From Eledone cirrhosa (lineage: Eukaryota), in NCBI GenBank assembly GCA_964016885.1, contig OZ024750.1, forward strand, positions 55,118,001 to 55,182,000: a DNA stretch of 64,000 bases, read 5' to 3'. The notes under the pieces were generated by a model. The model did no database searches and had not been told where the DNA came from. It worked only from the letters and a program-made list of their open reading frames with translations. The number at the start of each line of letters is the position of its first letter. Position 1 is the first letter of the stretch. The position numbers and the translations under genes were made by a program. Positions 14,714-60,851 of this stretch are shown piece after piece.

Positions 14714-16719
14714 TCATAACGGTACGCGATGGGACCCGCCCACAACCCCGGCGGACAGAATGGAGAAGGCGTTTCCCCGGAGCACGGCAAGGGAGACGCG
14801 CTGGAAAAGCCACTCCAACTCGCGGGGCTCACACCTGCGGCTGGCCAGCTCAGCGCCTATGGTGGTGAGTAAGGAGGTAGCCCTGGGGCCGAGGACACCA
14901 GAAGTCTCCACTTCCAGGGGTACGACCGCAAACCTGTCGGAGAGTGAACGATATGTGAGGAGTTTGGCCCCCTCAGCCTGACGTGCAGCAGAACCTGGGC
15001 CAGTCGCAGACTGCACCAGGTTGCGGCTGCAGAAAGTGTCAGTGCAAGTGGCATCCCAGACGAGGGGTTTGCCACCGCGGAACGGGAAGATGGTCATGCC
15101 ATCTAGCCTTTTGCCGTCCCCTCGAGCTGGGAAGGGAAGCCTGCAGCGTCCAAGCCATGCTTAATGACTTCGTTGAGGGCAGCATGGCGTGGATTGCGGC
15201 TGGCACTGTGGCGACAGGAAAGCGGGTGGAGGCCGAAAGAGTCCATGGTGGAACGGCAGCGACATTGGTGTGAGGCCGAGCCTCAGGGAAACGCCGATGC
15301 GCAAGCTATTGTTGTCTAGCTGCGTGCGAGTGGAGAAGGAGGGCAGGGCATGGAGCCAGGCCCCACTGTGGGGTTTGGAGGCTGCACGAAAACAAACAAG
15401 GCGGTGCTGGTCGAGCTGGCGCATGAGCCTGTCTGAGGCCAGGCTGCACTGGATGGCATCCCAAGTGTGTTGGGGGGGACTTGACGTCAACAGGGGGAGA
15501 AGGAGGAGGAACGTCTACTGGGCTAAGTCCCAGCCGGTCCCACGTCTCACAGGCGGCCACGCGTTCTCTGAACACAGAGGGTTCTGTTGTGTTTTGAAGA
15601 ACCCTGCTGAGGAGGACGTGGTACGAGGTTACCGACGAAAGATATGCCGGCAAAGCTAGTGAGATCGGGGACTGGAGGCGAAGGCCGCCATACCTGACAG
15701 GTAAAGTTGCATATCTCATCGGCTGCTGCTCGGATACAAGTTTAGGTGTAGCACAGAGTGTATAGAGGAGCTTCGGCATGGCGTAGCAGTTCCTCAGCAG
15801 AAAGAGAACTGGGTGGCCATCAATCAAGCCCAGTCGGCTCGTGAGAGTCTGGACTTGATGGAGGAGCGGATGGCCGGCGGGTGGATCGGTGAGGGCATCC
15901 TCTTTGGCGGGGTCACCTGAACCTGGCGGAGAATGGACCGCACGTCCAAGACGGAGACTGCAAAGCTTGCAGCATCGAGGCTGACATTCACCACCTCCGA
16001 CTTGGCTGAGTTGACCTGGAGGTCGATTCCCGCCAGGGCAGGAACCACCGATTGAAGGTCATGGCAGACCGCCTGTACGGGCCCACCCAAAGTAGCATCA
16101 TCCAGATACCAAACGTTGAGAGGGGCCGTTATACTCCAGGCGATGTGGTCAATACCAAGGGTGAACAGGAGGGGTCCCAAAGGGTTGCCCTGTTGGATCC
16201 CAGTAGCCAAGGGTATGACCGTATCAGCAGCATGGCGCATGCTTGGGGCTCCATATGACAGGTAGGCAGAGGGGGCTCGGCTGAGGCAGGCCTCGAGCAG
16301 ATGATCCCAGCGTAAAGAGTTGAAGGCATTCCTCATGTCAAACTTGACAATGAGGTGGCTGGAGGCCCTGGATGCCAGTTCCGAGTGTTACGGACTTGCA
16401 GATTACCTTGGCAGCCAGCCTCCGGAAGACATTGCCCACAGCAATGGGGCGTATGCCATCCTCTTTCTTCCTGAGAGCGGTGAGGCTGGCCGAAAAAAAG
16501 AGGCCTCGAGCATAAGAGTCCAGGGCGCCATGGATGAGCCTATTGGTGAGCGCCACAATTGCACTCAGAAGGCGGCGCCCGGCCTCAGCGGAGAGGGGAG
16601 ATATCAACTCCTTGAGGAGGCCTGGTCAGAGACCATCAACATCTCCGCAGCTGCTAGCTGGGAAGGACCTGATGGCGGACATGATGTCTGCATCAGAAGC
16701 CACAAGGAGCAAGTGTGGA
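14714..16719 (-). pseudogene. CRE-like RLE LINE, unit 3
   Basis: Same RT/RLE motifs, frameshifted. Confidence 0.85.
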
Positions 16720-17359
16720 TTACAATACAAAACCTCTGAGAATGATTTCTAAGATATTTCACCATAATTAATTTTCATCAATATATATTAATATTATTAT
16801 TGTTTATTAGGTCAGGTGGATTGGCCAGAACAATTCTACTCTTCTTTTTTAGATGTCACGATTTTTCATGGCATTCCTGAGATCATTAATCTCCAGCTGG
16901 AGATCCAGAGACATCTGATGTATGTAGGTGAACCTCAGTCATCCCACTTGGCTCTTACTATGTTTAGGTATCAACCACAGGAGCCAGCTCATCAGGTCAT
17001 CCTATCCTCAGCAGCAATGTCCAGCATCTATTGATTTCCGCTCCCTAGTTATTGTGGTAATCTTCGATATCTGGGAATATATTTCTTCTGCTTAAGGGAG
17101 TAATAAATATATAGTTTTAAAAAAAACATATATATACACACACATATATATATGTTGTCATTTATAAGAGTTCTCTATCAAAAGCCTTCTCTATGTCCAA
17201 AGCTAAGTATAGTGGCTTATTTTTCTCTAAGAACCTCTTTTGTAGTTGTCTCACTAAGAAGAGGGCATCTGTTGCACTTTTCAGCGGCACAAAACCAAAC
17301 TGCATCTCATACACATACATACATATACATACATACATACATATACACATACATACATA

Positions 17360-17392
<33 letters not shown>

Positions 17393-18235
17393 TTCGTTTT
17401 AAGTCCGCTTTTTCCCTGCTTGCAAGGGTGGGACGGGAACTGATTCTGGCTTGATTTCTACAGCTGGATGCCCTTCCTAACACCAACCTCATTTACAGTG
17501 AGTGCTGAGTGCTTTTTTGCCGTGGCACCTCCACGACCACTTTGCAGTGGAATGATATGGACCCCAGTCCCTATCATCTCATTTCTACAGCTGAGTAAAC
17601 TGGAGCAATGTGAAATAAAGTGTCTTGCTCAAGGAAACAACACATCACCCGGTCTGAGAATTGAACTCACAACCTTTCGATTGCCAGGCCAATGCTCGAA
17701 CCACTAAGCCATGTACCTACATATACATATACATACACATACATATACATACATATATATATACATACATACATATATACACATACATACATACACATAC
17801 ATACACATATACATACATATATATACATACATACACATACATAGATATATATATATATACATAATATAAATATACATACATACACATACATAAGCATATA
17901 CACATAAGTATATATACATATACACACGTATATATACATATACATACATACATATATACACATACATACATATATACATACATACACACATATACATACA
18001 TATATACATATACACATACATACATATACATACATATACACATACATACATATATATATATACATACACACACATATATACATACACACACATATATACA
18101 AACACATACATATACACATATATACACATACATACACATACATACACATACATATACATACATATACACATATACACTCATATATACATATACATACATA
18201 CACACACATACATACATATATACATATACATACAT

Positions 18236-18784
18236 AAAGACAAATCCACCTCATGGACGAGAATGCAAGGGCTCCTCCTCTTTGTTTCGGCCGCGGATGG
18301 CTAACCCTAACCCCATCCCCGCTCCCCACCGCTCCCAACCTCCAAACGCAATCCAAAACTTCAGAGTTGGTACCATTAATGTAGGCACCTTATAGGGTGG
18401 CTCTAACGAGGTTGTAGAAATGCTTGAACGTAAGGAGGTCGATGTTTGTTGTATTCAAGAGACCAGGTGGAGGGGTGGGTCTGCTAGATTCATCGTGGGT
18501 AAAGAACGATGCTATACGCTTTTCTGTGTGGCAAATGACAATGGGCTGGGTATACACATACCACCCCACCGCCCCACCGCAAAGTGGTCGTGGAGGCGCC
18601 GCGGCCAAAAAGCACCCAGCCCACACTGTAAAGCTGACGTGGAGGTGCCACGGAAAAAAAAAAGCACCCAGCACTCACTGCAAACGGGGTTGGCGTCAGG
18701 AAGGGCACCCAGCTGTAGAAACCAATCCAGAATCAGCTCCCACCCCACCCTTGCAAGCATGGAAAAGCGGACGTATGATGAAGT

Positions 18785-18786
<2 letters not shown>
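18236..18786 (+). mobile_element. Internally deleted RTE, unit 4
   Basis: Near-identical to 390-940. Confidence 0.85.
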
Positions 18787-18847
<61 letters not shown>

Positions 18848-19588
18848 TATATATATACACATATATATATACACACATATATATCAGTGTACATATATAT
18901 ATACATATATATATATATATAAATGAATATTTATTCAATTTAAAGCGCCAATTATCTATATATAACAAGATATGAATTTTTCTAGGGATGGGGAAATTTT
19001 CAGTTTGTTTTTATATTTTCACTTCATTTTTTACTTTCTATTTAATACAGTCTTTGATCCAATATAATCCTGACAGTATTTGAACCAGTTTACCTCATAT
19101 ATATGTATGCACACACAACACTCAAGTTTCGCCATCTACTGCTATTTCATTCATATTTATTGTTTAATTAACTCTGGTCTAATTCATCAACTATTGTTAA
19201 TTATATTATTACGTAGATTTCTTATAAAATCTAGTGCATATATACGTGTATATATACAGGGAGACACTGTAATAGATGTAAAGAGAGTGGGAGATAGAGT
19301 TATAGAAGTAAAGAGAGGGGGAGAACTAAGCGGTAGATAGAGTAATAGATGTAAAGAGAGGGTTAGAACGTTCAACTTGACAGTCAGTACAATGTTCAGC
19401 ATGGTAGCCAGTACATATGCCAACTACCCAACCGGCCAGCCAGCCGCATATGCGGTTGACTGGCCAGTTGGGCGGTTGGTATGTGGAACGTTCAACTACG
19501 CAGTCAGTACCAAAGTTCAACATTGTAGCCAGTGCATATGCCGATCGCCGCGCCCTCTTTGCTCTATTTTAATGACCTGGAACTAAGT

Positions 19589-19701
19589 AAAAAGAGTAGG
19601 AGATAACTCGACAAGAGCGGAGAGGGTGAGATTCGAACCATGTAAAGTCGTTGGCTCCTGAACTTCGTAAGCGGGGCTGCTACTGACTGAGCAGCGCCGG
19701 C
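19589..19701 (-). ncRNA. Candidate Pol III small RNA, family 1, copy 4
   Basis: Matches 1757-1869. Confidence 0.55.
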
Positions 19702-20696
19702 AGCAAGGCAAATCGCGCATAAAATAACGCTTATATCGACAAAAAAAAAAAAAAAATTTCAATGTTGCACTCTTGTTTGTTGTTCTTTTATTTTACGTAA
19801 ACATTTCGCTGCTCTAGCCTCTTATTTCCTATTAGATTACACTTAATTCCATTAAACATTCATTCTTAGTCTCGTGGTAAACTATTTCATCTATATTTAT
19901 ATCGCTGTTACAGCCTTTTATTTCTACATCTATCACCTATAGCCACTGTTACGCCGGTAGTATAAGTAGCTTTATAACAAGAAACGATGATATAACTCCA
20001 CAAAATGTCTTCTTCAGCAAGACACTTCACTTCATATTGCTCCAGTACACCGAGTTACACATAGACAGATACATACATACATACACAGATAGAAATGAGA
20101 GGTAGATAGAGTAAAAGATTTAAAGAGAGTGTGAGAAGTACGAGTTAGATAGTGTAAAAGATTTAAAGAGAGGGTGAGAGTGTGACACACATTTATCTGT
20201 CTATCTCTCTCTATTTTAACACCGGTCGTTATAATTAGTTTTATAACACCGCTATATTACCGACATGAAAGAGGTAAATAATTATTTCTTAAATGTTTAG
20301 AACATGTTTCTCTTGTCTTCTTAAATGTATAGAACATGTTTCTTATTTATATTCTTAACATAGCTAGGACCTTATCTCATTTACTGGTCTCTACTTTTAG
20401 GGCTTTGCTGGTCCCATGTGCCCTCCATGAAGACACACTCGCCCCTTCTCTCTCAGTCTCCGTACTAATTACTACACATACGTATATATATTTATTTTAA
20501 GAAACCTTAATGACAAATAATATAAAGTGTTTGTAAAGTGGGGAAGAGTAGTTTTACGGTGGGGTTGTTATATAGATATCGTTTTTGCAGTGGGGTCGTG
20601 ACTGGCGTATAATAATGAGTCACTGTTGATGTATATACAAATCATGTTTTGGATATAAGTGAAGTTATTTAAGAGATTTAGTTGTTTTGTATACAT

Positions 20697-22673
20697 TCAT
20701 AACGGTACGCGATGGGACCCACCCACAGCCCCGGCGGACAGAATGGAGAAGGCGTTTCCCCGGAGCACGGCAAGGGAGACGCGCTGGAAAAGCCACTCCA
20801 ACTCGCGGGGCTCACACCTGCGGCTGGCCAGCTCAGCGCCTATGGTGGTGAGTAAGGAGGTAGCCCTGGGGCCGAGGACACCAGAAGTCTCCACTTCCAG
20901 GGGTACGACCGCAAACCTGTCGGAGAGTGAACGATATGTGAGGAGTTTGGCCCCCTCAGCCTGACGTGCAGCAGAACCTGGGCCAGTCGCAGACTGCACC
21001 AGGTTGCGGCTGCAGAAAGTGTCGGTGCAAGTGGCATCCCAGACGAGGGGTTTGCCACCGCGGAACGGGAAGATGGTCATGCCATCTAGCCTTTTGCCGT
21101 CCCCTCGAGCTGGGAAGGGAAGCCTGCAGCGTCCAAGCCATGCTTAATGACTTCGTTGAGGGCAGCATGGCGTGGATTGCGGGTGGAGGCCGAAAGAGTC
21201 CATGGTGGAACGGCAGCGACATTGGTGTGAGGCCGAGCCTCAGGGAAACGCCGATGCGCAAGCTATTGTTGTCTAGCTGCGTGCGAGTGGAGAAGGAGGG
21301 CAGGGCATGGAGCCAGGCCCCACTGTGGGGTTTGGAGGCTGCACGAAAACAAACAAGGCGGTGCTGGTCGATTTGGCGCGTGAGCCTGTCTGAGGCCAGG
21401 CTGCACTGGATGGCATCCCAAGTGTGTTGGGGGGGACTTGACGTCAACAGGGGGAGAAGGAGGAGGAACGTCTACTGGGCTAAGTCCCAGCCGGTCCCAC
21501 GTCTCACAGGCGGCCACGCGTTCTCTGAACACAGAGGGTTCTGTTGTGTTTTGAAGAACCCTGCTGAGGAGGACGTGGTACGAGGTTACCGACGAAAGAT
21601 ATGCCGGCAAAGCTAGTGAGATCGGGGACTGGAGGCGAAGGCCGCCATACCTGACAGGTAAAGTTGCATATCTCATCGGCTGCTGCTCGGATACAAGTTT
21701 AGGTGTAGCACAGAGTGTATAGAGGAGCTTCGGCATGGCGTAGCAGTTCCTCAGCAGAAAGAGAACTGGGTGGCCATCAATCAAGCCCAGTCGGCTCGTG
21801 AGAGTCTGGACTTGATGGAGGAGCGGATGGCCGGCGGGTGGATCGGTGAGGGCATCCTCTTTGGGGGTCACCTGAACCTGGCGGAGAATGGACCGCACGT
21901 CCAAGACGGAGACTGCAAAGCTTGCAGCATCGAGGCTGACATTCACCACCTCCGACTTGGCTGAGTTGACCTGGAGGTCGATTCCCGCCAGGGCAGGAAC
22001 CACCGATTGAAGGTCATGGCAGACTGCCTGTACGGGCCCACCCAAAGTAGCATCATCCAGATACCAAACGTTGAGAGGGGCTGTTATACTCCAGGCGATG
22101 TGGTCAATACCAAGGGTGAACAGGAGGGGTCCCAAAGGGTTGCCCTGTTGGATCCCAGTAGCCAAGGGTATGACCGTATCAGCAGCATGGCGCATGCTTG
22201 GGGCTCCATATGACAGGTAGGCAGAGGGGGCTCGGCTGAGGCAGGCCTCGAGCAGATGATCCCAGCGTAAAGAGTTGAAGGCATTCCTCATGTCAAACTT
22301 GACAATGAGGTGGCTGGAGGCCCTGGATGCCGGTTCCGAGTGTTACGGACTTGCAGATTACCTTGGCAGCCAGCCTCCGGAAGACATTGCCCACAGCAAT
22401 GGGGCGTATGCCATCCTCTTTCTTCCTGCGAGCGGTGAGGCTGGCCGAAAAAAAGAGGCCTCGAGCATAAGAGTCCAGGGCGCCATGGATGAGCCTATTG
22501 GTGAGCGCCACAATTGCACTCAGAAGGCGGCGCCCGGCCTCAGCGGAGAGGGGAGATATCAACTCCTTGAGGAGGCCTGGTCAGAGACCATCAACATCTC
22601 CGCAGCTGCTAGCTGGGAAGGACCTGATGGCGGACATGATGTCTGCATCAGAAGCCACAAGGAGCAAGTGTGG
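20697..22673 (-). pseudogene. CRE-like RLE LINE, unit 4
   Basis: A 342-aa ORF (21263-22291) carries RT motifs; the flanking domains are in other frames. Confidence 0.85.
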
Positions 22674-23606
22674 ATTACAATACAAAACCTCTGAGAATGA
22701 TTTCTAAGATATTTCACCATAATTAATTTTCATCAATATATATTAATATTATTATTGTTTATTAGGTCAGGTGGATTGGCCAGAACAATTCTACTCTTCT
22801 TTTTTAGATGTCACGATTTTTCATGGCATTCCTGAGATCATTAATCTCCAGCTGGAGATCCAGAGACATCTGATGTATGTAGGTGAACCTCAGTCATCCC
22901 ACTAGGGTCTTACTATGTTTAGGTATCCACCACAGGAGCCAGCTCATCAGGTCATCCTACCCTCAGCAGCAATGTCCAGCATCTATTGATTTCCGCTCCC
23001 TAGTTATTGTGGTAATCTTCGATATCTGGGAATATATTTCTTCTGCTTAAGGGAGTAATAAATATATAGTTTTACAAAAAACATCTATATACACACACAT
23101 ATATATATGTTGTCATTTATAAGAGTTCTCTATCAAAAGCCTTCTCTATGTCCAAAGCTAAGTATAGTGGCTTATTTTTCTCTAAGAACCTCTTTTGTAG
23201 TTGTCTCACTAAGAAGAGGGCATCTGTTGCACTTTTCAGCGGCTTAATTAATTAATGAGGTTTAATTAATGAGGAATTTTGAGGTATTTATAACAATTAT
23301 TAATTATTTCATTACTGAGATATCATTTGAAGGACTTACTAATGTTTTTATTTATTAATTATTTTATTAGTAACTTAACATGTGGTTCTTGTATAAAATT
23401 ATGTTGGAAGATTTTAGGAAGATGCTATGTAGCCGGTCGCAGTAAAATAGACGCCCAGGCTATGTAGCCGGTAAGAGTGTCAGACTCCATGTGTTGCGGC
23501 CCTTTATGGTCTGAGTTAAGACAATTTAAAATCTTTTCCACCATCAATTGTTAAAAAACAAGTTAAAATCATTTTGTCGTCCATTTGTAACGTACGTTAC
23601 ACTTTA

Positions 23607-24365
23607 GTTACATACACATATACTATGTTACATACACACATCTACTGTGTTACATACACACACATCAACTGGGTTACATACACACACATCTACTGCGTTA
23701 CATACACATCTACTGTGTTACACACACATCTACTGTGTTACATACACACACATCTACTGAGTTACATACACACACATCTACTGTGTTACATACACACACA
23801 TCTTCTGTGTTACATACACACATCTACTATGTTACATACACACATCTACTATGTTACATACACACATCTACTGTGTTACATACACACACCTGTGTTACAT
23901 ACACACACATCTACTGAGTTACATACACACAGATCTACTGTGTTACACACATCTTCTATGTTACATACACACAATCTACTGTGTTACATACACACATCTA
24001 CTGAGTTACATACACACACATCTACTGAGTTACATACACACACATGTACTGTGTTACATACACACATCTACTGTGTTACATACATACACATCTACTGTGT
24101 TACATACATACACATCTACTGTTACATACACACATCTACCGTGTTACACACACACATCTACCGTGTTACACACACACATCTACCGTGTTACACACACACA
24201 TCTACCGTGTTACACACACACATCTACCGTGTTACACACACACATCTACTGAGTTACATACACATATACTGAGTTACATGCAAACACACATCTACTGTGT
24301 TACATATACACATCTACTGTGTTACATACACATCTACTGTGATACACACACACACATCTACTCAT
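23607..24365. repeat. Minisatellite, ~20-24 bp unit (CATCTACTGTGTTACATACACACA); also ~39343-40080 and ~55066-55780
   Basis: Directly visible; array length differs among the three blocks. Confidence 0.95.
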
Positions 24366-25174
24366 ACATATTCATAAATAGACACACATTATACAAATAA
24401 TTATTACATACACACACATCTCTGTAATAATTCAGGAAGGAAGGGGCTGGTGAAACGCTATAGCAATGTGTGTGTGTTGTGTACCTTTCAGGTTTACCGG
24501 TTTCGTAGCCTATTTGAAGATTTTATTATAATTATGAACCTTATAATTCAATTAATTATGAATAATTTTGAGCTATTTATCACAATTGTTAGTTAATTAC
24601 TAACATAGTAACTTACCATATGGTTGTTATATAGAATTTTGTTGGAAGACTTTAATTTAGATAGGAACCATTTCCATAGTACGAGAACTAATTTTGGTTG
24701 GGTTTCTACCAAAAGGGTTAATGAAGAATTTTGAACAATTTACTAAAATTATTAATTATTTCATTACTAAGATAATGTGTGAATACACAATTATATGTGT
24801 GTATATATATATAAACAGTATATATATATATAAACAGTATATATATATATAGTATATATATATATAAACAGTATATATATAGTATACAAAAGATGTAGTG
24901 GGATAGTGTGTAGTCTTAAGACAAGTCTGTCCAGATAGCTGCGCTGTAACTTACACTTATTGGGACTGTGTGTTGGCAAGCAGGCCTGTATTTTGGGATC
25001 TAGCTGGTCCATTATGAGGGAGGTCTGGTTAGTTGGCAGCACCATGCCTTACTTGTGGTATATGTATGTATAGAAATAAGTTATTGTATATGCATAACTG
25101 TCCATCTATATGTATACATGTATGTTTACTTATATCTTTGCATACATATATACATTTTCAGATGTATACACGTA

Positions 25175-27095
25175 ATGGTCACCCGGATAGTAAACCAAGT
25201 CATACAGAATGGGGTTGTTCTGAAGGACTGGCGTAGCAGCATCATCATTAACTGTTACAAGGGTAAAGGAGATGCCCTAGATAGGAGTAACTATAGAGGC
25301 ATTAAATTAATCGACCAGGTCATGAAGGTCACGGAAAAAGTAATAGCGCAACTAATCAGAGAGAGAATTGATCTAGATGAAATGCAGTTCGGGTTTGTGT
25401 CAGGTAAAAGTACCACAGACGCTCTTTTCATTGTACGACAACTACAGGAGAAGTACCTAGTTAAAAGTAAACCCCTATACTTAGCTTTTGTTGACTTGGA
25501 GAAAGCCTTCGACAGAGTCCCCCGTTCCATTATCTGGTGGGCTCTTAGAAAACTAGGTGTTGAGGAATGGCTTGTGAGAGCTATACGAGCCATGTATAAA
25601 GAAACAGTCAGCAAGGTTAGAATTAACAACGAATATAGTGAAGAGTTTAGCGTAAAAGTTGGTGTTCATCAGGGCTCCGTCCTTAGCCCCCTACTATTTA
25701 TTATTGCCCTTCAGGCTATAACAGTGGAGTTCAAGACCGGCTGCCCATGGGAACTCCTATACGCAGATGATCTAACGCTCATAGCTGAATCAATGGCCGA
25801 GCTAGAGAAGAAATTCCAAACATGGAAGCAAGGCCTAGAATCAGAAGGCCTTAAAATTAACCTGGCTAAGACTAAAGTTCTAGTTTGTAGGAAAGAAAAT
25901 AAGGCGCCGGTCCCTTCCGGGAAATGGCCATGCTCAGTGTGTAGGAAAGGCGTAGGTAGAAACTCCATTTTATGTCCCAAATGCAAAGTATGGGTTCATA
26001 AAAGATGTAGTGGGATCACAGGTAAGCTAACTAAGAACATAGATTTTACATGTGGCCGGTGCTCTGGTGCAATAAGTAGCAGCAAGTGCCCACAAAATAC
26101 TAGCTCTTTCAATTGCGCAGAGGGTTCTATAGAAATAGTGGACAGCTTCCGTTACCTGGGTAACAAAATCAGCAATGGGGGAGGGTGCTCTGAAAGTACA
26201 GTAGCTAGAGTCAGAACTGGATGGAAAAAGTTCAGAGAGCTTATACCACTATTAGCCGCTAAAGGGTTCTCCCTAAAAATGAAAGGCAGGTTGTATGATG
26301 CCTGCATATGAACAGCAATGTTGCATGGCAGTGAGACCTGGGCATTGTGTGCAGAGGATATACGCAGACTAGAGAGGAACGAAGCTTGCATGCTTCGCTG
26401 GATGTGTAATAGTAATATATGTGAACGGCAAAGCATAAACGAACTAAGGGAAAAATTAGAAATAAGAGGGATCAGATGTTGTGTACTCGAGAGAAGACTA
26501 CGTTGGTATGGTCCACGTGATGCGGATGAAAGACGACAGCTGTATAAAAAAAATGCAGGGCAATAAAGATAGACGGTAGCCACGGAGTAGGCAGACCCAG
26601 AAAAACCTGGGACGACTTGATAAATTCCGACCTCACACACTTACACCTCTCCAAGACAATGTCACTGGACCGAGATCTTTGGCGGTACTCAGTAATAGAG
26701 AAGACCCGCCTTACCTAGATACAAAGTAAAACCTACTACAGTCAGTAGGCACCTCTAACAAAATACACCCCACCCCATCCACACCGCCCCTTTCAATGTA
26801 AAGTTATGTTGGTGCCACAACATCCAGGCCGAAACAAATGAGGTCGTGTAGGTGTCACGAGAAAAAAAAAAAACACAGTCCACGCAGTAATGTGGCCGTG
26901 TAGGTAACACGGTAAAAACCTCTCAGTCCCACACTGTAAATGCGGTTGGTGTTAGGAAGGGCATCCAGCTGTAGAAAACCCGCCAGACAGTCCTATGCGA
27001 GCAAGACAACCACTCTTGCCTCAAGTGGGAAAATTCCCGTCCAAACCCATGCAAGCGTGGAATATGGACGTTAAACGATGATGATGATGATGATG

Positions 27096-27097
<2 letters not shown>
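25175..27097 (+). pseudogene. 5'-truncated RTE LINE (RT with internal PHD-like finger), disrupted
   Basis: NYRGIKL, QFGF, FVDLEKAFDRV, GVHQGSVLSPLLF, YADD motifs; stop at 26309-26311 (TGA where the copy at 63661 has CGA); later frameshift; 3' UTR and (GAT)n tail. Confidence 0.93.
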
Positions 27098-27126
<29 letters not shown>

Positions 27127-27277
27127 TCCTTTGACATTTCTTAGAAAAAAAATGAAAAAGTTTTGTGAGAACCCCAATGTTTATTTATTTTATTTTATTT
27201 TTAAATAAAATTAATAACATTAATTTTATTTTGAAATTAGGTTTATAAATATTAATTATCAGCAGACCTTTGTAGCA

Positions 27278-27388
27278 GTCTTGGCGGCTTAGTGGGAAGT
27301 ACCAGAGATGGTGAGGTCCTTGTCTGTAGGTTCAATCCTGGTCTGGGAGTTCAATCATTGCTGTAATGTGTCCTGTTAATCTTTTTTT
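27278..27388 (+). ncRNA. Candidate Pol III tRNA-like RNA, family 2a (block 1)
   Basis: TATAAATA at 27244 (-34), A box CGGCTTAGTGG at +8, B box GGTTCAATCC at 27329 plus a second GAGTTCAATC, T7 terminator. Confidence 0.55.
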
Positions 27389-27668
27389 AAATTTTCCTCA
27401 GAAAAAACTGAAAATCTTTGGTGAGAACCCCAATGTCTATTTATCTAATATAATTTAATTTATTTTATTTTATTTTATTTTACTTTAGTTAAATTGTCAA
27501 AACCACTGGTGATCTAAAGTTAGAGGAGACAGATAAAATAGACATATTGTCTCCTCAACCTTTAGATCTTCAGTGTTTTCGACAATTTAACTAAAATAAA
27601 AAATTAAATTCAATATAATTAAATAAATAGGGGTTCTCTTTTTCAAAGAGATATAGAAAGAAAATTAT

Positions 27669-27806
27669 AAAAGATTAACATGACACCTTACATGTATCTC
27701 ATGGACCAGGATTGAACCTGAGTCCCCAATTCAACCCTCAGACCAGGATTGAACACCCAGAACAGGATCTCACCATCTCTGGTACTTCCCACTAAGCTAC
27801 CGAGAC
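27669..27806 (-). ncRNA. Candidate Pol III tRNA-like RNA, family 2b (block 1)
   Basis: TATAAATA at 27840 (-34), GTCTCGG-TAGCTTAGTGG A box, duplicated GTTCAATCCTGGTC B boxes, T4 terminator. Confidence 0.55.
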
Positions 27807-28032
27807 TGATACAAAGATGTACTGAAATTTAATATTTATAAACCTACTTTCAAAATAAAATTAAAAATAAAATATATATATATATATATTCCTTTGACAT
27901 TTCTTAGAAAAAAGAACTGAAAAAGTTTTGTGAGAACGCCAATGTCTATTTATTTTATTTTATTTTTAATTAAATTAGTTATATTTTGAAAGTAGGTTTA
28001 TAAATATTAATTTTCAATAGACCTTTGTAGCA

Positions 28033-28134
28033 GTCTTGGTGGCTTAGTGGGAAGTACCAGAGATGGTGAGATCCTTGTCTGTAAGTTCAATTCTTGCTTG
28101 GAGACATGTCTAATGTGTCCTATTAATCTTTTTT
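28033..28134 (+). ncRNA. Candidate Pol III tRNA-like RNA, family 2c (block 1)
   Basis: TATAAATA at 27999 (-34), A box TGGCTTAGTGG at +8, T-arm GTAAG-TTCAATT-CTTGC at nt 49-65, cloverleaf-like fold 28033-28106, T6 terminator. Confidence 0.6.
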
Positions 28135-28255
28135 AAATTTTCCTTTTACATCTCTTAGAAATAACTGAAAATCTTTGGTGAGAACCCCAATGTCTATTTA
28201 TCTAATATAATTAATTTAATTTAATTTAATTTAATTTTTATTTTAGTGAAACCAC

Positions 28256-28596
28256 TGTTGTATTCAAGAGACCAGGTGGAGGGGTGGGTCTGCTAGATTC
28301 ATCGTGGGTAAAGAGCGGTGCTATGAACTTTTCTGGGTGGGAAATGACAATGGGCTGGGTATACACATACCACCCCACCACCCCACCGTAAAGTGGTCGT
28401 GGAGGCGCCACGGCAAAAAAGCACCCAGCCCGCTCTGTAAAGCTGACGTGGAGGTGCCACGTAAAAAAAAAAAGCACCCAGCACTCACTGCAAACTGGGT
28501 TGGCGTCAGGAAGGGCACCCAGCTGTAGAAACCAATCCAGAATCAGCTCCCACCCCACCCTTGCAAGCATGGAAAAGCGGACGTATGATGAAGTTG
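28256..28596 (+). mobile_element. Internally deleted RTE, unit 5 (5'-clipped, B variant)
   Basis: Begins at CCIQETRW; ELFWVGNDNG variant. Confidence 0.85.
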
Positions 28597-29370
28597 ATAT
28601 ATATATATATATATTAGTATATATATACACATACATATGTACACATATACACATACATATATATATATATATACACACACATATATATCAGTGTACATAT
28701 ATATATACATATATATATATATATAAATGAATATTTATTCAATTTAAAGCGCCAATTATCTATATATAACAAGATATGAATTTTTCTAGGGATGGGGAAA
28801 TTTTCAGTTTGTTTTTATATTTTCACTTCATTTTTTACTTTCTATTTAATACAGTCTTTGATCCAATATAATCCTGACAGTATTTGAACCAGTTTACCTC
28901 ATATATATGTATGCACACACAACACTCAAGTTTCGCCATCTACTGCTATTTCATTCATATTTATTGTTTAATTAACTCTGGTCTAATTCATCAACTATTG
29001 TTAATTATATTATTACGTAGATTTCTTATAAAATCTAGTGCATATATACGTGTATATATACAGGGAGACACTGTGTAATAGATGTAAAGAGAGTGGGAGA
29101 TAGAGTTATAGAAGTAAAGAGAGGGAGAGAAATAAGCGGTAGATAGAGCAATAGATGTAAAGAGAGGGTTAGAACGTTCAACTTGACAGTCAGTACATAT
29201 GCCAACTACCCAACCGGCCAGCCAGCCGTATTTGCGGTTGACTGGCCAGTTGGGCGGTTGGTATGTGGAACGTTCAACTATGCAGTCAGTACCAAAGTTC
29301 AACATTGTAGCCAGTGCATATGCCGATCGCCGCGACCTCTTTGCTCTATTTAAATGACCTGGAACTAAGT

Positions 29371-29483
29371 AAAAAGAGTAGGAGATAACTCGACAAGAGC
29401 GGAGAGGGTGAGATTCGAACCATGTAAAGTCGTTGGCTCCTGAACTTCGTAAGCGGGGCTGCTACTGACTGAGCAGCGCCGGC
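29371..29483 (-). ncRNA. Candidate Pol III small RNA, family 1, copy 5 (B variant unit)
   Basis: Identical to copy 1 by eye despite substitutions and indels in the flanks. Confidence 0.55.
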
Positions 29484-30498
29484 AGCAAGGCAAATCGCGC
29501 ATAAAATAACGCTTATATCGAAAAAATAAATCAAAAATTTCAATGTTGCACTCTTGTTTGTTGTTCTTTTATTTTACGTAAACATTTCGCTGCTCTAGCC
29601 TCTTATTTCCTATTAGATTACACTTAATTCCATTAAACATTCATTCTTAGTCTCGTGGTAAACTATTTCATCTATATTTATATCGCTGTTACAGCCTTTT
29701 ATTTCTACATCTATCACCTATAGCCACTGTTACGCCGGTAGTATAAGTAGCTTTATAACAAGAAACGATGATATAACTCCACAAAATGTCTTCTTGAGCA
29801 AGACACTTCACCTCATATTGCTCCAGTACACCGAGTTACACATAGACAGATACATACATACACATATATATGTACACAGATAGAAATAAGAGGGAGATAG
29901 AGTAAAAGATGTAAAGATAGTGTAAAAGATTTAAAGAGAGGGTGAGAGTGTGACACACATTTATCTGTCTATCTCTCTCTATTTTAACACCGGTCGTTAT
30001 AATTAGTTTTATAACACCGCTATATTACCGACATGAAAGAGGTAAATAATTATTTCTTAAATGTTTAGAACATGTTTCTCTTGTCTTCTTAAATGTATAG
30101 AACATGTTTCTTATTTATATTCTTAACATAGCTAGGACCTTATCTCATTTACTGGTCTCTACTTTTAGGGCTTTGCTGGTCCCATGTGCCCTCCATGAAG
30201 ACACACTCGCCCCTTCTCTCTCAGTCTCCGTACTAATTACTACACATACGTATATATATTTATTTTAAGAAACCTTAATGACAAATAATATAAAGTGTTT
30301 GTAAAGTGGGGAAGAGTAGTTTTACGGTGGGGTTGTTATATAGATATCGTTTTTGCAGTGGGGTCGTGACTGGCGTATAATAATGAGTCACTGTTGATGT
30401 ATATACAAATCATATTTTGGATATAAGTGAAGTTATTTAAGAGATTTAGTTGTTTTGTATACATTCCAGTTGTTGTCTCCCTGTTTCTTCTTCAACAA

Positions 30499-32500
30499 CT
30501 ATAACGGTACGCGATGGGGCCCACCCACAGCCCCGGCGGACAGAATGGAGAAGGCGTTTCCCCGGAGCACGGCAAGGGAGACGCGCTGGAAAAGCCACTC
30601 CAACTCGCGGGGCTCACACCTGCGACTGGCCAGCTCAGCGCCTATGGTGGTGAGTAAGGAGGTAGCCCTGGGGTCGAGGACACCAGAAGTCTCCACTTCC
30701 AGGGGTACGACCGCAAACCTGTCGGAGAGTGAACGATATGTGAGGAGTTTGGCCCTCTCAGCCTGACGTGCAGCAGAACCTGGGCCAGTCGCAGACTGCA
30801 CCAGGTTGCGGCTGCAGAAAGTGTCGGTGCAAGTGGCATCCCAGACGAGGGGTTTGCCACCGCGGAACGGGAAGATGGTCATGCCATCTGGCCTTTTGCC
30901 GTCCCCTGGAGCTGGGAAGGGAAGCCTGCAGCGTCCAAGCCATGCTTAATGATTTCGTTGAGGGCAGCATGGCGTGGATTGCGGCTGGCACTGTGGCGAC
31001 AGGAAAGCGGGTGGAGGCCGAAAGAGTCCATGGTGGAACGGCAGCGACATTGGTGTGAGGCCGAGCCTCAGGGAAACGCCGATGCGCAAGCTATGGTTGT
31101 CTAGCTGCGTGCGAGTGGAGAAGGAGGGCAGGGCATGGAGCCAGGCCCCACTGTGGGGTTTGGAGGCCGCACGAAAACAAACAAGGCGGTGCTGGTCGAG
31201 CTGGCACGTGAGCCTGTCTGAGGCCAGGCTGCACTGGATGGCATCCCAAGTGTGTTGGGGGGACTTGACGTCAACAGGGGGAGAAGGAGGAGGAACGTCT
31301 ACTGGGCTAAGTCCCAGCCGGTGCCACGTCTCACAGGCGGCCACGCGTTCTCTGAACACAGAGGGTTCTGTTGTGTTTTGAAGAACCCTGCTGAGGTGGA
31401 CGTGGTACGAGGTTACCGACGAAAGATACGCCGGCAAAGCTAGTGAGATCGGGGACTGGAGGCGAAGGTCGCCATACCTGATAGGTAAAGTTGCATATCT
31501 CATCGGCTGCTGCTCGGATACAAGTCTGGGTGTAGCACAGAGTGTATAGAGGAGCTTCGGCATGGCGTAGCAGTTCCTCAGCAGAAAGAGAACTGGGTGG
31601 CCATCAATCAAGCCCAGTCGGCTCGTGAGAGTCTGAACTTGATGGTGGAGCGGATGGCCGGCGGGTGGATCGGTGAGGGCATCCTCTTTGGGGGTCACCT
31701 GAACCTGGCGGAGAATGGACCGCACGTCCAAGACGGAGACTGCAAAGCTTGCAGCATCGAGGCTGACATTCACCACCTCCGACTTGGCTGAGTTGACCTG
31801 GAGGTCGATTCCCGCCAGGGCAGGAACCACCGATTGAAGGTCATGGCAGACCGCCTGTACGGGCCCACCCAAAGTAGCATCATCCAGATACCAAACGTTG
31901 AGAGGGGCCGTTATACTCCGGGCGATGTGGTCAATACCAAGGGTGAACAGGAGGGGTCCCAAAGGGTTGCCCTGTTGGATCCCAGTAGCCAAGGGTATGA
32001 CCGTATCAGCAGCATGTCGCATGCTCGGGGCTCCATATGACAGCTAGGCAGAGGGGGCTCGGCTGAGGCAGGCCTCGAGCAGATGATCCCAGCGTAAAGA
32101 GTTGAAGGCATTCCTCATGTCAAACTTGACAATGAGGTGGCTGGAGTCCCTGGATGCCGGTTCCGAGTGTTACGGACTTGCAGGTTACCTTGGCAGCCAG
32201 CCTCCGGAAGACATTGCCCACAGCAATGGGGCGTATGCCACCCTCTTTCTTCCTGAGAGCGGTGAAGCTGGCTGAAAAAAAGAGGCCTCGAGCATAAGAG
32301 TCCAGGGCGCCATGGATGAGCCTATTGGTGAGCGCCACAATTGCACTCAGAAGGCGGCGCCCGGCCTCAGCGGAGAGGGGAGATGTCAACTCCTTGAGGA
32401 GGCCTGGTCAGAGACCATCAACATCACCGCAGCTGCTAGCTGGGAAGGACCTGATGGCGGACATGATGTCTGCATCAGAAGCCACAAGGAGCAAGTGTGG
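30499..32500 (-). pseudogene. CRE-like RLE LINE, unit 5 (B variant, 358-aa open stretch)
   Basis: Same motifs (GGIRPIAVG, WYLDD, LVWDATC); fewer frameshifts, but still interrupted. Confidence 0.85.
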
Positions 32501-38409: not shown

Positions 38410-40905
38410 ATTACAATACAAAACCTCTGAGAATGATTTCTAAGATATTTCACCATAATTAATTTTCATCAATATATATTAATATTATTATTGTTTATTA
38501 GGTCAGGTGGATTGGCCAGAACAATTCTACTCTTCTTTTTTAGATGTCACGATTTTTCATGGCATTCCTGAGATCATTAATCTCCAGCTGGAGATCCAGA
38601 GACATCTGATGTATGTAGGTGAACCTCAGTCATCCCACTAGGGTCTTACTATGTTTAGGTATCCACCACAGGAGCCAGCTCATCAGGTCATCCTACCCTC
38701 AGCAGCAATGTCCAGCATCTATTGATTTCCGCTCCCTAGTTATTGTGGTAATCTTCGATATCTGGGAATATATTTCTTCTGCTTAAGGGAGTAATAAATA
38801 TATAGTTTTTAAAAAAACATATATATACACACACATATATATATGTTGTCATTTATAAGAGTTCTCTATCAAAAGCCTTCTCTATGTCCAAAGCTAAGTA
38901 TAGTGGCTTATTTTTCTCTAAGAACCTCTTTTGTAGTTGTCTCACTAAGAAGAGGGCATCTGTTGCACTTTTCAGCGGCTTAATTAATTAATGAGGTTTA
39001 ATTAATGAGGAATTTTGAGGTATTTATAACAATTATTAATTATTTCATTACTGAGATATCATTTGAAGGACTTACTAATGTTTTTATTTATTAATTATTT
39101 TATTAGTAACTTAACATGTGGTTCTTGTATAAAATTATGTTGGAAGATTTTAGGAAGATGCTATGTAGCCGGTCGCGGTAAAATAGACGCCCAGGCTATG
39201 TAGCCGGTAAGAGTGTCAGACTCCATGTGTTGCGGCCCTTTATGGTCTGAGTTAAGACAATTTAAAATCTTTTCCACCATCAATTGTTAAAAAACAAGTT
39301 AAAATCATTTTGTCGTCCATTTGTAACGTACGTTACACTTTAGTTACATACACATATACTATGTTACATACACACATCTACTGTGTTACATACACACACA
39401 TCAACTGGGTTATATACACACACATCTACTGCGTTACATACACATCTACTGTGTTACACACACATCTACTGTGTTACATACACACACATCTACTGAGTTA
39501 CATACACACACATCTACTGTGTTACATACACACACATCTTCTGTGTTACATACACACATCTACTATGTTACATACACACATCTACTGTGTTACATACACA
39601 CACCTGTGTTACATACACACACATCTACTGAGTTACATACACACAGATCTACTGTGTTACATACACACACATCTACTGTGTTACACACATCTTCTATGTT
39701 ACATACACACAATCTACTGTGTTACATACACACATCTACTGAGTTACATACACACACATCTACTGAGTTACATACACACACATGTACTGTGTTACATACA
39801 CACATCTACTGTGTTACATACATACACATCTACTGTGTTACATACATACACATCTACTGTTACATACACACATCTACCGTGTTACACACACACATCTACC
39901 GTGTTACACACACACATCTACCGTGTTACACACACACATCTACCGTGTTACACACACACATCTACTGAGTTACATACACATATACTGAGTTACATGCAAA
40001 CACACATCTACTGTGTTACATATACACATCTACTGTGTTACATACACATCTACTGTGATACACACACACACATCTACTCATACATATTCATAAATAGACA
40101 CACATTATACAAATAATTATTACATACACACACATCTCTGTAATAATTCAGGAAGGAAGGGGCTGGTGAAACGCTATAGCAATGTGTGTGTGTTGTGTAC
40201 CTTTCAGGTTTACCGGTTTCGTAGCCTATTTGAAGATTTTATTATAATTATGAACCTTATAATTCAATTAATTATGAATAATTTTGAGCTATTTATCACA
40301 ATTGTTAGTTAATTACTAACATAGTAACTTACCATATGGTTGTTATATAGAATTTTGTTGGAAGACTTTAATTTAGATAGGAACCATTTCCATAGTACGA
40401 GAACTAATTTTGGCTGGGTTTCTACCAAAAGGGTTAATGAAGAATTTTGAACAATTTACTAAAATTATTAATTATTTCATTACTAAGATAATGTGTGAAT
40501 ACACAATTATATGTGTGTATATATATATAAACAGTATATATATATATAGTATATATATATATAAACAGTATATATATATATAGTATATATATATATAAAC
40601 AGTATATATATAGTATACAAAAGATGTAGTGGGATAGTGTGTAGTCTTAAGACAAGTCTGTCCAGATAGCTGCGCTGTAACTTACACTTATTGGGACTGT
40701 GTGTTGGCAAGCAGGCCTGTATTTTGGGATCTAGCTGGTCCATTATGAGGGAGGTCTGGTTAGTTGGCAGCACCATGCCTTACTTGTGGTATATGTATGT
40801 ATAGAAATAAGTTATTGTATATGCATAACTGTCCATCTATATGTATACATGTATGTTTACTTATATCTTTGCATACATATATACATTTTCAGATGTATAC
40901 ACGTA

Positions 40906-42863: not shown

Positions 42864-43012
42864 CTTTGACATTTCTTAGAAAAAAAATGAAAAAGTTTTG
42901 TGAGAACCCCAATGTTTATTTATTTTATTTTATTTTTAAATAAAATTAATAACATTAATTTTATTTTGAAATTAGGTTTATAAATATTAATTATCAGCAG
43001 ACCTTTGTAGCA

Positions 43013-43123
43013 GTCTTGGCGGCTTAGTGGGAAGTACCAGAGATGGTGAGGTCCTTGTCTGTAGGTTCAATCCTGGTCTGGGAGTTCAATCATTGCTGTA
43101 ATGTGTCCTGTTAATCTTTTTTT
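43013..43123 (+). ncRNA. Family 2a, block 2
   Basis: Matches 27278-27388. Confidence 0.55.
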
Positions 43124-43393: not shown

Positions 43394-43531
43394 AAAAGAT
43401 TAACATGACACCTTACATGTATCTCATGGACCAGGATTGAACCTGAGTCCCCAATTCAACCCTCAGACCAGGATTGAACACCCAGAACAGGATCTCACCA
43501 TCTCTGGTACTTCCCACTAAGCTACCGAGAC
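43394..43531 (-). ncRNA. Family 2b, block 2
   Basis: Matches 27669-27806. Confidence 0.55.
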
Positions 43532-43757
43532 TGATACAAAGATGTACTGAAATTTAATATTTATAAACCTACTTTCAAAATAAAATTAAAAATAAAATAT
43601 ATATATATATATATTCCTTTGACATTTCTTAGAAAAAAGAACTGAAAAAGTTTTGTGAGAACGCCAATGTCTATTTATTTTATTTTATTTTTAATTAAAT
43701 TAGTTATATTTTGAAAGTAGGTTTATAAATATTAATTTTCAATAGACCTTTGTAGCA

Positions 43758-43859
43758 GTCTTGGTGGCTTAGTGGGAAGTACCAGAGATGGTGAGATCCT
43801 TGTCTGTAAGTTCAATTCTTGCTTGGAGACATGTCTAATGTGTCCTATTAATCTTTTTT
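43758..43859 (+). ncRNA. Family 2c, block 2
   Basis: Matches 28033-28134. Confidence 0.6.
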
Positions 43860-54132: not shown

Positions 54133-56605
54133 ATTACAATACAAAACCTCTGAGAATGATTTCTAAGATATTTCACCATAATTAATTTTCATCAATATAT
54201 ATTAATATTATTATTGTTTATTAGGTCAGGTGGATTGGCCAGAACAATTCTACTCTTCTTTTTTAGATGTCACGATTTTTCATGGCATTCCTGAGATCAT
54301 TAATCTCCAGCTGGAGATCCAGAGACATCTGATGTATGTAGGTGAACCTCAGTCATCCCACTAGGGTCTTACTATGTTTAGGTATCCACCACAGGAGCCA
54401 GCTCATCAGGTCATCCTACCCTCAGCAGCAATGTCCAGCATCTATTGATTTCCGCTCCCTAGTTATTGTGGTAATCTTCGATATCTGGGAATATATTTCT
54501 TCTGCTTAAGGGAGTAATAAATATATAGTTTTTAAAAAAACATATATATACACACACATATATATATGTTGTCATTTATAAGAGTTCTCTATCAAAAGCC
54601 TTCTCTATGTCCAAAGCTAAGTATAGTGGCTTATTTTTCTCTAAGAACCTCTTTTGTAGTTGTCTCACTAAGAAGAGGGCATCTGTTGCACTTTTCAGCG
54701 GCTTAATTAATTAATGAGGTTTAATTAATGAGGAATTTTGAGGTATTTATAACAATTATTAATTATTTCATTACTGAGATATCATTTGAAGGACTTACTA
54801 ATGTTTTTATTTATTAATTATTTTATTAGTAACTTAACATGTGGTTCTTGTATAAAATTATGTTGGAAGATTTTAGGAAGATGCTATGTAGCCGGTCGCG
54901 GTAAAATAGACGCCCAGGCTATGTAGCCGGTAAGAGTGTCAGACTCCATGTGTTGCGGCCCTTTATGGTCTGAGTTAAGACAATTTAAAATCTTTTCCAC
55001 CATCAATTGTTAAAAAACAAGTTAAAATCATTTTGTCGTCCATTTGTAACGTACGTTACACTTTAGTTACATACACATATACTATGTTACATACACACAT
55101 CTACTGTGTTACATACACACACATCAACTGGGTTACATACACACACATCTACTGCGTTACATACACATCTACTGTGTTACACACACATCTACTGTGTTAC
55201 ATACACACACATCTACTGAGTTACATACACACACATCTACTGTGTTACATACACACACATCTTCTGTGTTACATACACACATCTATGTTACATACACACA
55301 TCTACTGTGTTACATACACACACCTGTGTTACATACACACACATCTACTGAGTTACATACACACAGATCTACTGTGTTACATACACACACATCTACTGTG
55401 TTACACACATCTTCTATGTTACATACACACAATCTACTGTGTTACATACACACAATCTACTGAGTTACATACACACACATCTACTGAGTTACATACACAC
55501 ACATGTACTGTGTTACATACACACATCTACTGTGTTACATACATACACATCTACTGTGTTACATACATACACATCTACTGTTACATACACACATCTACCG
55601 TGTTACACACACACATCTACCGTGTTACACACACACATCTACCGTGTTACACACACACATCTACTGAGTTACATACACATATACTGAGTTACATGCAAAC
55701 ACACATCTACTCTGTTACATATACACATCTACTGTGTTACATACACATCTACTGTGATACACACACACACATCTACTCATACATATTCATAAATAGACAC
55801 ACATTATACAAATAATTATTACATACACACACATCTCTGTAATAATTCAGGAAGGAAGGGGCTGGTGAAACGCTATAGCAATGTGTGTGTGTTGTGTACC
55901 TTTCAGGTTTACCGGTTTCGTAGCCTATTTGAAGATTTTATTATAATTATGAACCTTATAATTCAATTAATTATGAATAATTTTGAGCTATTTATCACAA
56001 TTGTTAGTTAATTACTAACATAGTAACTTACCATATGGTTGTTAATATAGAATTTTGTTGGAAGACTTTAATTTAGATAGGAACCATTTCCATAGTACGA
56101 GAACTAATTTTGGCTGGGTTTCTACCAAAAGGGTTAATGAAGAATTTTGAACAATTTACTAAAATTATTAATTATTTCATTACTAAGATAATGTGTGAAT
56201 ACACAATTATATGTGTGTATATATATATAAACAGTATATATATATATAGTATATATATATATAAACAGTATATATATATATAGTATATATATATATAAAC
56301 AGTATATATATAGTATACAAAAGATGTAGTGGGATAGTGTGTAGTCTTAAGACAAGTCTGTCCAGATAGCTGCGCTGTAACTTACACTTATTGGGACTGT
56401 GTGTTGGCAAGCAGGCCTGTATTTTGGGATCTAGCTGGTCCATTATGAGGGAGGTCTGGTTAGTTGGCAGCACCATGCCTTACTTGTGGTATATGTATGT
56501 ATAGAAATAAGTTATTGTATATGCACAACTGTCCATCTATATGTATACATGTATGTTTACTTATATCTTTGCATACATATATACATTTTCAGATGTATAC
56601 ACGTA

Positions 56606-58565: not shown

Positions 58566-58714
58566 CTTTGACATTTCTTAGAAAAAAAATGAAAAAGTTT
58601 TGTGAGAACCCCAATGTTTATTTATTTTATTTTATTTTTAAATAAAATTAATAACATTAATTTTATTTTGAAATTAGGTTTATAAATATTAATTATCAGC
58701 AGACCTTTGTAGCA

Positions 58715-58825
58715 GTCTTGGCGGCTTAGTGGGAAGTACCAGAGATGGTGAGGTCCTTGTCTGTAGGTTCAATCCTGGTCTGGGAGTTCAATCATTGCTG
58801 TAATGTGTCCTGTTAATCTTTTTTT
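58715..58825 (+). ncRNA. Family 2a, block 3
   Basis: Matches 27278-27388; TATA at 58681. Confidence 0.55.
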
Positions 58826-59084
58826 AAATTTTCCTCAGAAAAAACTGAAAATCTTTGGTGAGAACCCCAATGTCTATTTATCTAATATAATTTAATTTAT
58901 TTTATTTTATTTTACTTTAGTTAAATTGTCAAAACCACTGGTGATCTAAAGTTAGAGGAGACAGATAAAATAGACATATTGTCTCCTCAACCTTTAGATC
59001 TTCAGTGTTTTCGACAATTTAACTAAAATAAAAAATTAAATTCAATATAATTAAATAAATAGGGGTTCTCTTTTTCAAAGAGAT

Positions 59085-60365: not shown

Positions 60366-60385
60366 AGATATAGAAAGAAAATTAT

Positions 60386-60523: not shown

Positions 60524-60749
60524 TGATACAAAGATGTACTGAAATTTAATATTTATAAACCTACTTTCAAAATAAAATTAAAAATAAAATATATATATAT
60601 ATATATTCCTTTGACATTTCTTAGAAAAAAGAACTGAAAAAGTTTTGTGAGAACGCCAATGTCTATTTATTTTATTTTATTTTTAATTAAATTAGTTATA
60701 TTTTGAAAGTAGGTTTATAAATATTAATTTTCAATAGACCTTTGTAGCA

Positions 60750-60851
60750 GTCTTGGTGGCTTAGTGGGAAGTACCAGAGATGGTGAGATCCTTGTCTGTA
60801 AGTTCAATTCTTGCTTGGAGACATGTCTAATGTGTCCTATTAATCTTTTTT
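60750..60851 (+). ncRNA. Family 2c, block 3
   Basis: Matches 28033-28134. Confidence 0.6.

Follow-up and report, generated by a model that had tools for sequence, protein, structure and literature searches.

A multi-thousand-copy family of predicted Pol III genes in Eledone cirrhosa, with facing pairs carried by a hAT-type MITE

Gene c of the Eledone cirrhosa window described here belongs to a multi-thousand-copy family of tRNA- and SINE-head-like genes that are predicted to be transcribed by Pol III. Most copies occur as facing pairs within a hAT-type MITE or in subtelomeric macro-repeats, and the conserved element of the family is its promoter, not a fold. The family is apparently undescribed: it is absent from the open-access literature searched, and it may already be catalogued without interpretation in repeat databases such as Repbase and Dfam.

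Locus c and the extent of its family

The window, by which we mean the whole 64,000-nucleotide stretch, covers C10:55.118–55.182 Mb in a genome of 3.0 Gb, with ~104 kb between it and the contig end. Its SINE and RTE content looks octopus-like. In it, an inverted gene pair, a/b, adjoins c, and the trio is repeated in the window's ~15.7-kb repeats (Table 1). A c-specific junction has 90 exact matches genome-wide, counted as copies of c; on nine contigs with checked ends, these copies lie within 0.8 Mb of an end, the isolated L045 excepted. The a, b and c genes of the window are not inside the hAT-type MITE; their flanks consist of (TA)n and macro-repeat sequence, and the upstream flanks differ.

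Table 1. Positions of predicted Pol III genes and associated features in the window
Feature	Position	Strand	Comment
Upstream TATA-containing motif of gene c	27989..28015	+	−38 to −12; predicted to bind TBP/TFIIIB
11-nt spacer before the start of gene c	28016..28026	+	hypermutable across the family
Gene c, predicted 106-nt primary Pol III RNA	28027..28132	+	start G to fourth T of the T-run
A box of gene c	28040..28050	+	several columns at least 90% conserved (30 paralogs)
ACCA-GAGA-TGGT hairpin	28056..28067	+	forms in c; as an arm not conserved
B box of gene c	28085..28093	+	invariant T, T, T columns; one B-box unit
T6 Pol III terminator of gene c	28129..28134	+	many retrocopies stop at the equivalent T-run
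Upstream motif of gene a	27234..27260	+	two changes (read from sequence)
Gene a	27272..27388	+	left partner of b in convergent pair
Inverted-repeat spacer between a and b	27478..27601		54-nt arms, 87%
Gene b	27669..27812	−	three B-box units; right partner of a in convergent pair
Upstream motif of gene b	27824..27850	−	read from sequence
Identical gene c, next repeat unit	43752..43857	+	a at 43007-43123, b at 43394-43537
Identical gene c, further copy	60744..60849	+	a at 58709-58825, b at 60386-60529
One ~15.7-kb subtelomeric macro-repeat unit with a, b, c	14716..30466		repeats 98–99% identical

Other repeats share the macro-repeat with these genes. A GC-rich, broken non-LTR element with an RVT_1 match (E 1e-9) is present in every unit (20697–22342 on the minus strand, repeated at 14714–16387 and 30499–32043); its C-terminal part is CRE/NeSL-like in appearance. 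Pieces of RTE-like LINEs lie at 25004–26700, where RVT_1 and PHD matches were found, at 59084–60366 (minus strand) and at 61351–64000, and one such piece is inserted directly downstream of the gene b terminator in the third unit. Each unit also has a 22–24-bp minisatellite (23607–24354, 39343–40078 and 55066–55777).

All motifs quoted by the first-pass annotation are present in the sequence at 28033–28106, and they are followed, as it described, by a trailer and T6. The RNA probably begins at 28027, six bases before the position that this annotation took as the first. An A box, a B box and a terminator of at least four T residues are all present, which is the anatomy of a type-2 Pol III gene. 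The sequence TATAAATA starts at −28 from G28027 in c, against −30 in the U6 gene L334 of this genome, and the TATA spacing resembles that of this genome's U6 and tRNA-Sec genes. By eye, no PSE-like box of the kind common to those U6 and tRNA-Sec genes (~−80 to −60) is present upstream of c or of L295. Among the comparison genes themselves, we observed ~30 variant U6 genes in tandem, spaced ~1.8 kb apart and altered in the 5′ stem (L336–L353, C19:31.78–31.84 Mb), and two tRNA-Sec genes (L354 and L355) that each have a GC-rich hairpin ahead of the T-run; this hairpin is kept in the retrocopy L357.

Genome-wide searches indicate the size of the family. A young core gave 319 exact matches, an old-type 31-mer gave 1,052 matches at ≤2 mismatches and the upstream motif gave 4,258 matches at ≤1 mismatch; further searches for older relatives, which were traced from loose ends in a DNA run, added 17 and 252 matches. 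The controls for all of these searches returned 0, and a metagenome scan with the upstream motif also gave 0 matches. The 218 distinct promoter-bearing genes fall into 21 lineages. Between lineages, identity is 0.90–0.91 in the 27-bp motif (−38 to −12), the value of 0.91 being inflated by loci that were found via the motif itself, and 0.52 in the adjacent 11 nt; it is 0.76 in the A box, 0.74 in the B box and ~0.62 in the remaining body.

Convergent, tail-to-tail pairs recur in very different lineages, and in nearly all of them. At 30 motif loci, some of which are the two ends of one pair, the motif is followed by a gene in 26, an opposite-strand motif lies 199–299 nt away in 26 and a hAT arm is present in 20. 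The starts of paired genes are 195–240 nt apart (10 pairs measured). Older pairs with inverted arms of at least 330 nt were seen at L295 (3254 and 3930), L249 and L300, and the pairs at these three loci have a second B-box-like element ~200 nt upstream of each start. A separate arrangement occurs at L259:5160–5560 (minus strand), where the upstream motif and an A-box start lead into a different body and short repeats with a CTGAGA...GAAA core; this core is reminiscent of a minimal hammerhead ribozyme.

The best sequence matches of the family are to an abundant SINE head (z 4.2–4.9) and to tRNA-Ser (z 3.0–3.9), and they fall mostly at the boxes. Family and SINE head have 14 nt of the A-box region in common, which is a short homology. 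Five tRNA or tRNA-like genes were tried as candidate parents, tRNA-Glu giving z 0.6–2.5, and the comparison singles out no parent tRNA. A derivation from tRNA-Sec was rejected, the body similarity (z 0.0–1.5) amounting to none. A protein-coding exon was also considered, given a splice-donor-like end of the invariant core, and is opposed by the A and B boxes, the terminators and the retrocopy ends; by eye, 14 family loci contain no long non-transposon ORF. We also noted dispersed, near-identical tRNA-like genes with good RF00005 scores and varying anticodons (L142, L144–L152), possibly a tRNA-like repeat family.

Folding of the predicted transcripts

The first-pass annotation had read c as a tRNA mimic in which a GNRA-tetraloop stem replaces the anticodon arm. 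Five helices can indeed all be drawn in c. As hand-folded, the cloverleaf has an energy of −10.4 kcal/mol against an MFE of −26.7 kcal/mol, with a probability of ~4e-13; its probability in the 74-nt form of c is 2e-8, and the acceptor, D, variable and T pairs have probabilities ≤0.02 in the 106-nt RNA. ARAGORN reports 0 tRNA genes, and Rfam gives no tRNA match (RF00005), even at E≤5 or 10. Nor is the folding z of c unusual (−0.55 over 78 nt, −1.47 over 102 nt). The GNRA hairpin is well populated in c (0.89–0.96), but it is rare in a (0.01) and b (≤0.09) and is fully paired in 8 of 30 paralogs. A 25-nt core is the same in a, b and c; to call the three genes otherwise diverged was an overstatement, since they are young relatives with 84–88% identity.

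The same arms were followed in 30 diverse paralogs (alignment A1), for which RNAalifold returns no pairs and no consensus structure. Complete arms number 18 for D, 13 for variable (register corrected), 8 for GNRA and 1 for T; the 5-bp T-arm that had been placed in the tRNA register is thus complete in a single paralog, with 47% of its cells paired. Over the four arms, 63.7% of A1 is paired (D 83, GNRA 72, variable 56, T 47). Two measures, percent paired (63.7 vs 60.9) and covariation score, exceed all 500 shuffles, and part of the covariation score derives from a 1-nt register shift; on the two more reliable measures, the counts of pairs and of pair types, 287/500 and 284/500 shuffles are as high. 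With its register corrected the variable arm is 79% paired, a value that 167/2000 shuffles reach. The sole double change in the D-stem is from C-G to U-A, in 6/30 paralogs. GAGA occupies the loop position in 21/30 paralogs, but in most lineages it pairs better with a 5′ UCUC.

The tRNA-like length and T-stem of c have a local explanation. Its close relatives carry two or three B-box units and c carries one; among 63 scorable copies of the 74 sampled from the young lineage, 4 are short (all c-type), 27 have one extra unit and 32 have two. Loss of one ~18-nt tandem unit therefore accounts for both features, the deletion having fused the 5′ strand of one unit with the 3′ strand of the next. The expected processing to ~74–77 nt is likewise unsupported: retrocopies include leader and trailer as far as the T-run and do not correspond to a tRNA-like mature form. 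We consider the tRNA-mimic reading largely refuted, and it is most improbable that c encodes a processed, CCA-added, non-decoding mimic with a GNRA arm. What stands of the proposed mimic family is that it is Pol III-type, tRNA-head-like, non-decoding, amplified and apparently undescribed; a tRNA shape with a conserved GNRA arm does not. The family resembles mascRNA-type mimics in being non-decoding and tRNA-related, and differs from them in its own Pol III promoter, in the lack of conserved acceptor and T structure and in showing no sign of RNase P/Z-type ends.

Other folds were examined in 34 predicted transcripts, which are 81–158 nt long and fold weakly (mean z −0.52). Pairing of the ‘GAGA loop’ with the 5′ UCUC gives a 5′ hairpin that is capped by the D-like stem; this hairpin is 85% paired in 30 genes and dominant in 16/34 transcripts. 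A terminal panhandle of the vault or 4.5SI type was rejected as a family feature: it is present in c and is not family-wide. The A-box/3′ duplex is strong only in the c/d lineage. The family has no Rfam match to vault RNA and no conserved terminal pairing, and so does not qualify as vault RNA (PMC7904556).

These folds bear on the possibility that the family supplies a functional, lineage-specific small RNA like 4.5SH/4.5SI or snaR, selected at a few source loci, with the transposon copies as spill-over; such an RNA would act via its 5′ hairpin or base-pair to transcripts that contain SINEs. Promoter type, size and tandem or segmental spread are as in 4.5SH and snaR, at least 21 old lineages retain motif, boxes and spacing, the first 42 nt have a mean folding z of −1.46, and the A-box region has its 14 nt in common with the abundant SINE head. 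Against this, the bodies are ~62% identical and transcript lengths vary over the range given above, double changes in the 5′ hairpin are few (496/500 and 378/500 shuffles are as high), the terminal panhandle is not conserved (mean z −0.23) and the SINE homology is short. We regard a functional RNA of this kind as unlikely, though less so than the tRNA mimic.

Rodent 4.5SH and 4.5SI are described as SINE- or tRNA-derived Pol III genes of ~95–100 nt with A and B boxes and a TATA-like box near −31/−24, and 4.5SH as lying in hundreds of 4–5-kb tandem repeats (PMC10137851, PMC7279448). By that description gene type, size, boxes and upstream TATA-like box are the same here, whereas the present family has thousands of copies, at least 21 diverged lineages, convergent pairs and a DNA-transposon carrier; unlike 4.5SI it has no conserved terminal duplex, and its expression is predicted from sequence. 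The snaR RNAs of primates (PMC3045588) are likewise SINE-related Pol III products that are confined to a lineage and have multiplied mostly through segmental duplication, but they are Alu-derived and have a known protein partner, whereas the present family is tRNA-head-like and far larger.

Carrier element and retrocopies

In an older lineage, one pair is nested in a 0.9–1.2-kb element with terminal inverted repeats (TIRs), and exact 8-bp target-site duplications (TSDs) were found at four loci (L086, L090, L158 and L168). TIRs and 8-bp target duplications are hallmarks of hAT elements, and on these two features we take the carrier to belong to the hAT superfamily. The left end of this MITE has 791 genome matches. 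The cassette lies behind 14/30 left ends, and several of the others continue uninterrupted over the insertion site; the existence of such empty versions indicates that the gene pair is captured cargo. Among 30 of 150 PF05699 transposase loci, with 1.5-kb flanks, no autonomous hAT with the same ends was found, and the open-access literature searched yielded no hAT element carrying Pol III genes.

The recurrence of pairs raises the possibility that they are useful as DNA, with selection on promoters and orientation and not on RNA sequence: facing TFIIIC/TFIIIB platforms might open or insulate the transposon or subtelomere, or read-through hairpins might feed small-RNA or ADAR pathways. Convergent pairing holds for nearly all lineages, conservation is highest in the promoter, nearly half of the sampled MITE left ends carry the cassette, and a read-through from a into b folds as a 541-nt hairpin of −249 kcal/mol. 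Pol III hairpins have been shown to be able to feed Dicer (PMC12487709). On the other side, empty MITEs have spread too, conservation of the motif in MITE copies does not significantly exceed that of the arm (P 0.46 and 0.53), and the T-runs between the genes face both ways, so read-through should be rare. We judge usefulness of this kind to be quite improbable.

A bolder version, which we also think unlikely, is that a DNA transposon captured a face-to-face, active Pol III pair and spread it to thousands of sites. The pair would then act as a mobile TFIIIC/TFIIIB platform or supply hairpin RNA, to the benefit of the element or with an influence on octopus subtelomeres, while its RNA would go on seeding proto-SINE fusions with LINE tails. 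Such an element would be a cut-and-paste counterpart of Cassandra and Helenus. The TRIMp3 elements Cassandra, Helenus and Ajax are LTR retroelements with direct repeats, PBS/PPT and 4–5-bp TSDs (PMC10886601); like the present carrier they are non-autonomous and have small-RNA-derived Pol III promoters whose motifs, but not RNA structure, are conserved. The carrier here differs from those TRIMp3 descriptions in its TIRs and 8-bp TSDs, and in that the Pol III units are inverted, each with a terminator of its own, and form a cargo that some elements lack.

The alternative already raised by the first-pass annotation, a SINE, is contradicted by the upstream DNA. In a sample that was not drawn at random, 280/329 distinct genes keep the upstream motif and 49 are without it; 23/30 loci found by a gene-body pattern also lack it. 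RNA retroposition cannot copy upstream DNA, so the SINE alternative fails for the promoter-bearing majority. The 49 promoterless copies match the family at close to background level upstream of −1, with an increase at +1/+2, and ~12 of them look by eye like DNA rearrangements. Those fused to SINE or LINE pieces are dispersed over the genome. A sense SINE or LINE piece starts at +71 to +126 in 17/49 (antisense in 1); 5 of these 17 are self-matches to the library source loci and 12 are independent. Retrocopies start at the G equivalent to 28027 and stop near the T-run, and L045 is identical to 28027–28132 and joined to a full SINE. As a positive control, retrocopies of U6 (L348) and tRNA-Sec (L357, L358) are fused to the same partners. 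A junction-pattern search gave 3 matches, namely one known chimera, one new chimera and one chance match. Around 8 chimeras we found no convincing TSD.

A common LINE-derived tail is absent; partners and junctions are several and different. It is true that c is most similar to a SINE head and tRNA-Ser, chiefly in the boxes, and that the locus sits in a repeat rich in SINE and LINE debris, as would suit an ordinary SINE head or dead tRNA pseudogene in a satellite that is now untranscribed. The upstream promoter common to most copies, the lack of a common tail and the retrocopy identical to c with the predicted RNA ends make this reading very hard to credit. One locus on C1719 (L294:3689–4242, minus strand) contains eight truncated family units in a 79-bp tandem array with a SINE head behind it, a case of satellite formation from a retrocopy.

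Ohshima and Okada reportedly described tRNA-derived SINEs of octopus in 1994. The family is like these in having a tRNA-like head with A and B boxes, as well as similarity to the abundant SINE head of this genome; it differs in having no common body or tail and in being amplified mainly as DNA with its promoter, the sequence comparison being with the SINE head of this genome. Chimeric retrocopies have precedents in U6/LINE chimeras, including ones with RTE-clade LINEs (PMC4476161), and a fungal RNA of unknown function, WEIRD, that is known from such chimeras (PMC2104539). In both, as here, a full small RNA lies 5′ of a LINE or SINE piece, RTE-clade partners included; relative to those accounts, many distinct source genes contribute in the present family, and the 8 chimeras tested showed no convincing TSD.

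Mutation profile, transcription and significance

The MITE copies provide an untranscribed arm for comparison with the genes. Across 37 copies, the arm has a non-CpG divergence of 0.041 and the motifs one of 0.035; the two spacers reach 0.103 and 0.122 and gene E1 reaches 0.073, and these last three values differ from the arm at P<1e-6. Parsimony counts on a star-like tree of 26 of the 37 copies follow the same order, with 1.02 changes per site in the arm, 0.81/0.93 in the motifs, 2.36/3.20 in the spacers and 1.57/1.98 in the genes. Mutation just upstream of the start is thus 2–3-fold higher. Singleton rates are flat (~0.02) across segments, and the excess therefore lies in recurrent changes. 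On the sense strand, G>T changes are in excess over C>A changes (P 0.007 in one of six tests). A similar profile has been described for active tRNA genes, which show a mutation peak 12–15 nt ahead of the mature end together with a dip at the TBP site (PMC6130373); the spacer here lies 7–17 nt upstream of the tRNA-like position 1.

Retrocopies and hypermutation together point to likely germline transcription, and Pol III transcription of the family, taken alone, is very probable. Of five public runs listed, four come from one organism and study. The single RNA run has a small share, and its sole contig (depth 2.1) crosses the terminator and may be DNA, so that the run speaks neither for nor against transcription.

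We favour, with some confidence, a model in which germline Pol III transcription yields an unprocessed RNA of ~106 nt that has no conserved cloverleaf and is probably a passenger of DNA-level duplication. TFIIIC would bind the A and B boxes and TBP/TFIIIB the upstream TATA-containing motif; Pol III would then initiate at G28027 and terminate in the T-run. The older lineage would have spread as pair cargo of the hAT-type MITE and the younger one (a, b, c) via the subtelomeric macro-repeat. A LINE reverse transcriptase switching onto this abundant RNA would generate the SINE/LINE fusions; with a terminator ahead of the acquired tail, these probably do not propagate further. The contrast between a conserved promoter and a rapidly evolving body would reflect transcription-linked mutation combined with weak selection on an RNA that has no structure-dependent function. 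Some residual structure counts against this model, namely the pairing kept in the 5′ hairpin and the variable arm and the D-stem change. The main point that the passenger model leaves unexplained is the persistence of facing pairs despite bodies that are ~62% identical.

The family represents an apparently undescribed and very large set of predicted Pol III genes in a cephalopod, and its carrier a DNA transposon with such genes as cargo. With thousands of copies of similar age and the untranscribed arm as an internal control, Pol III transcription-associated mutagenesis would become measurable free of the purifying selection that masks it in tRNAs. Fusions of head and LINE tail may capture the step from which new SINEs are thought to arise, and the filled and empty versions of one MITE would make a barrier role of TFIIIC sites directly testable.
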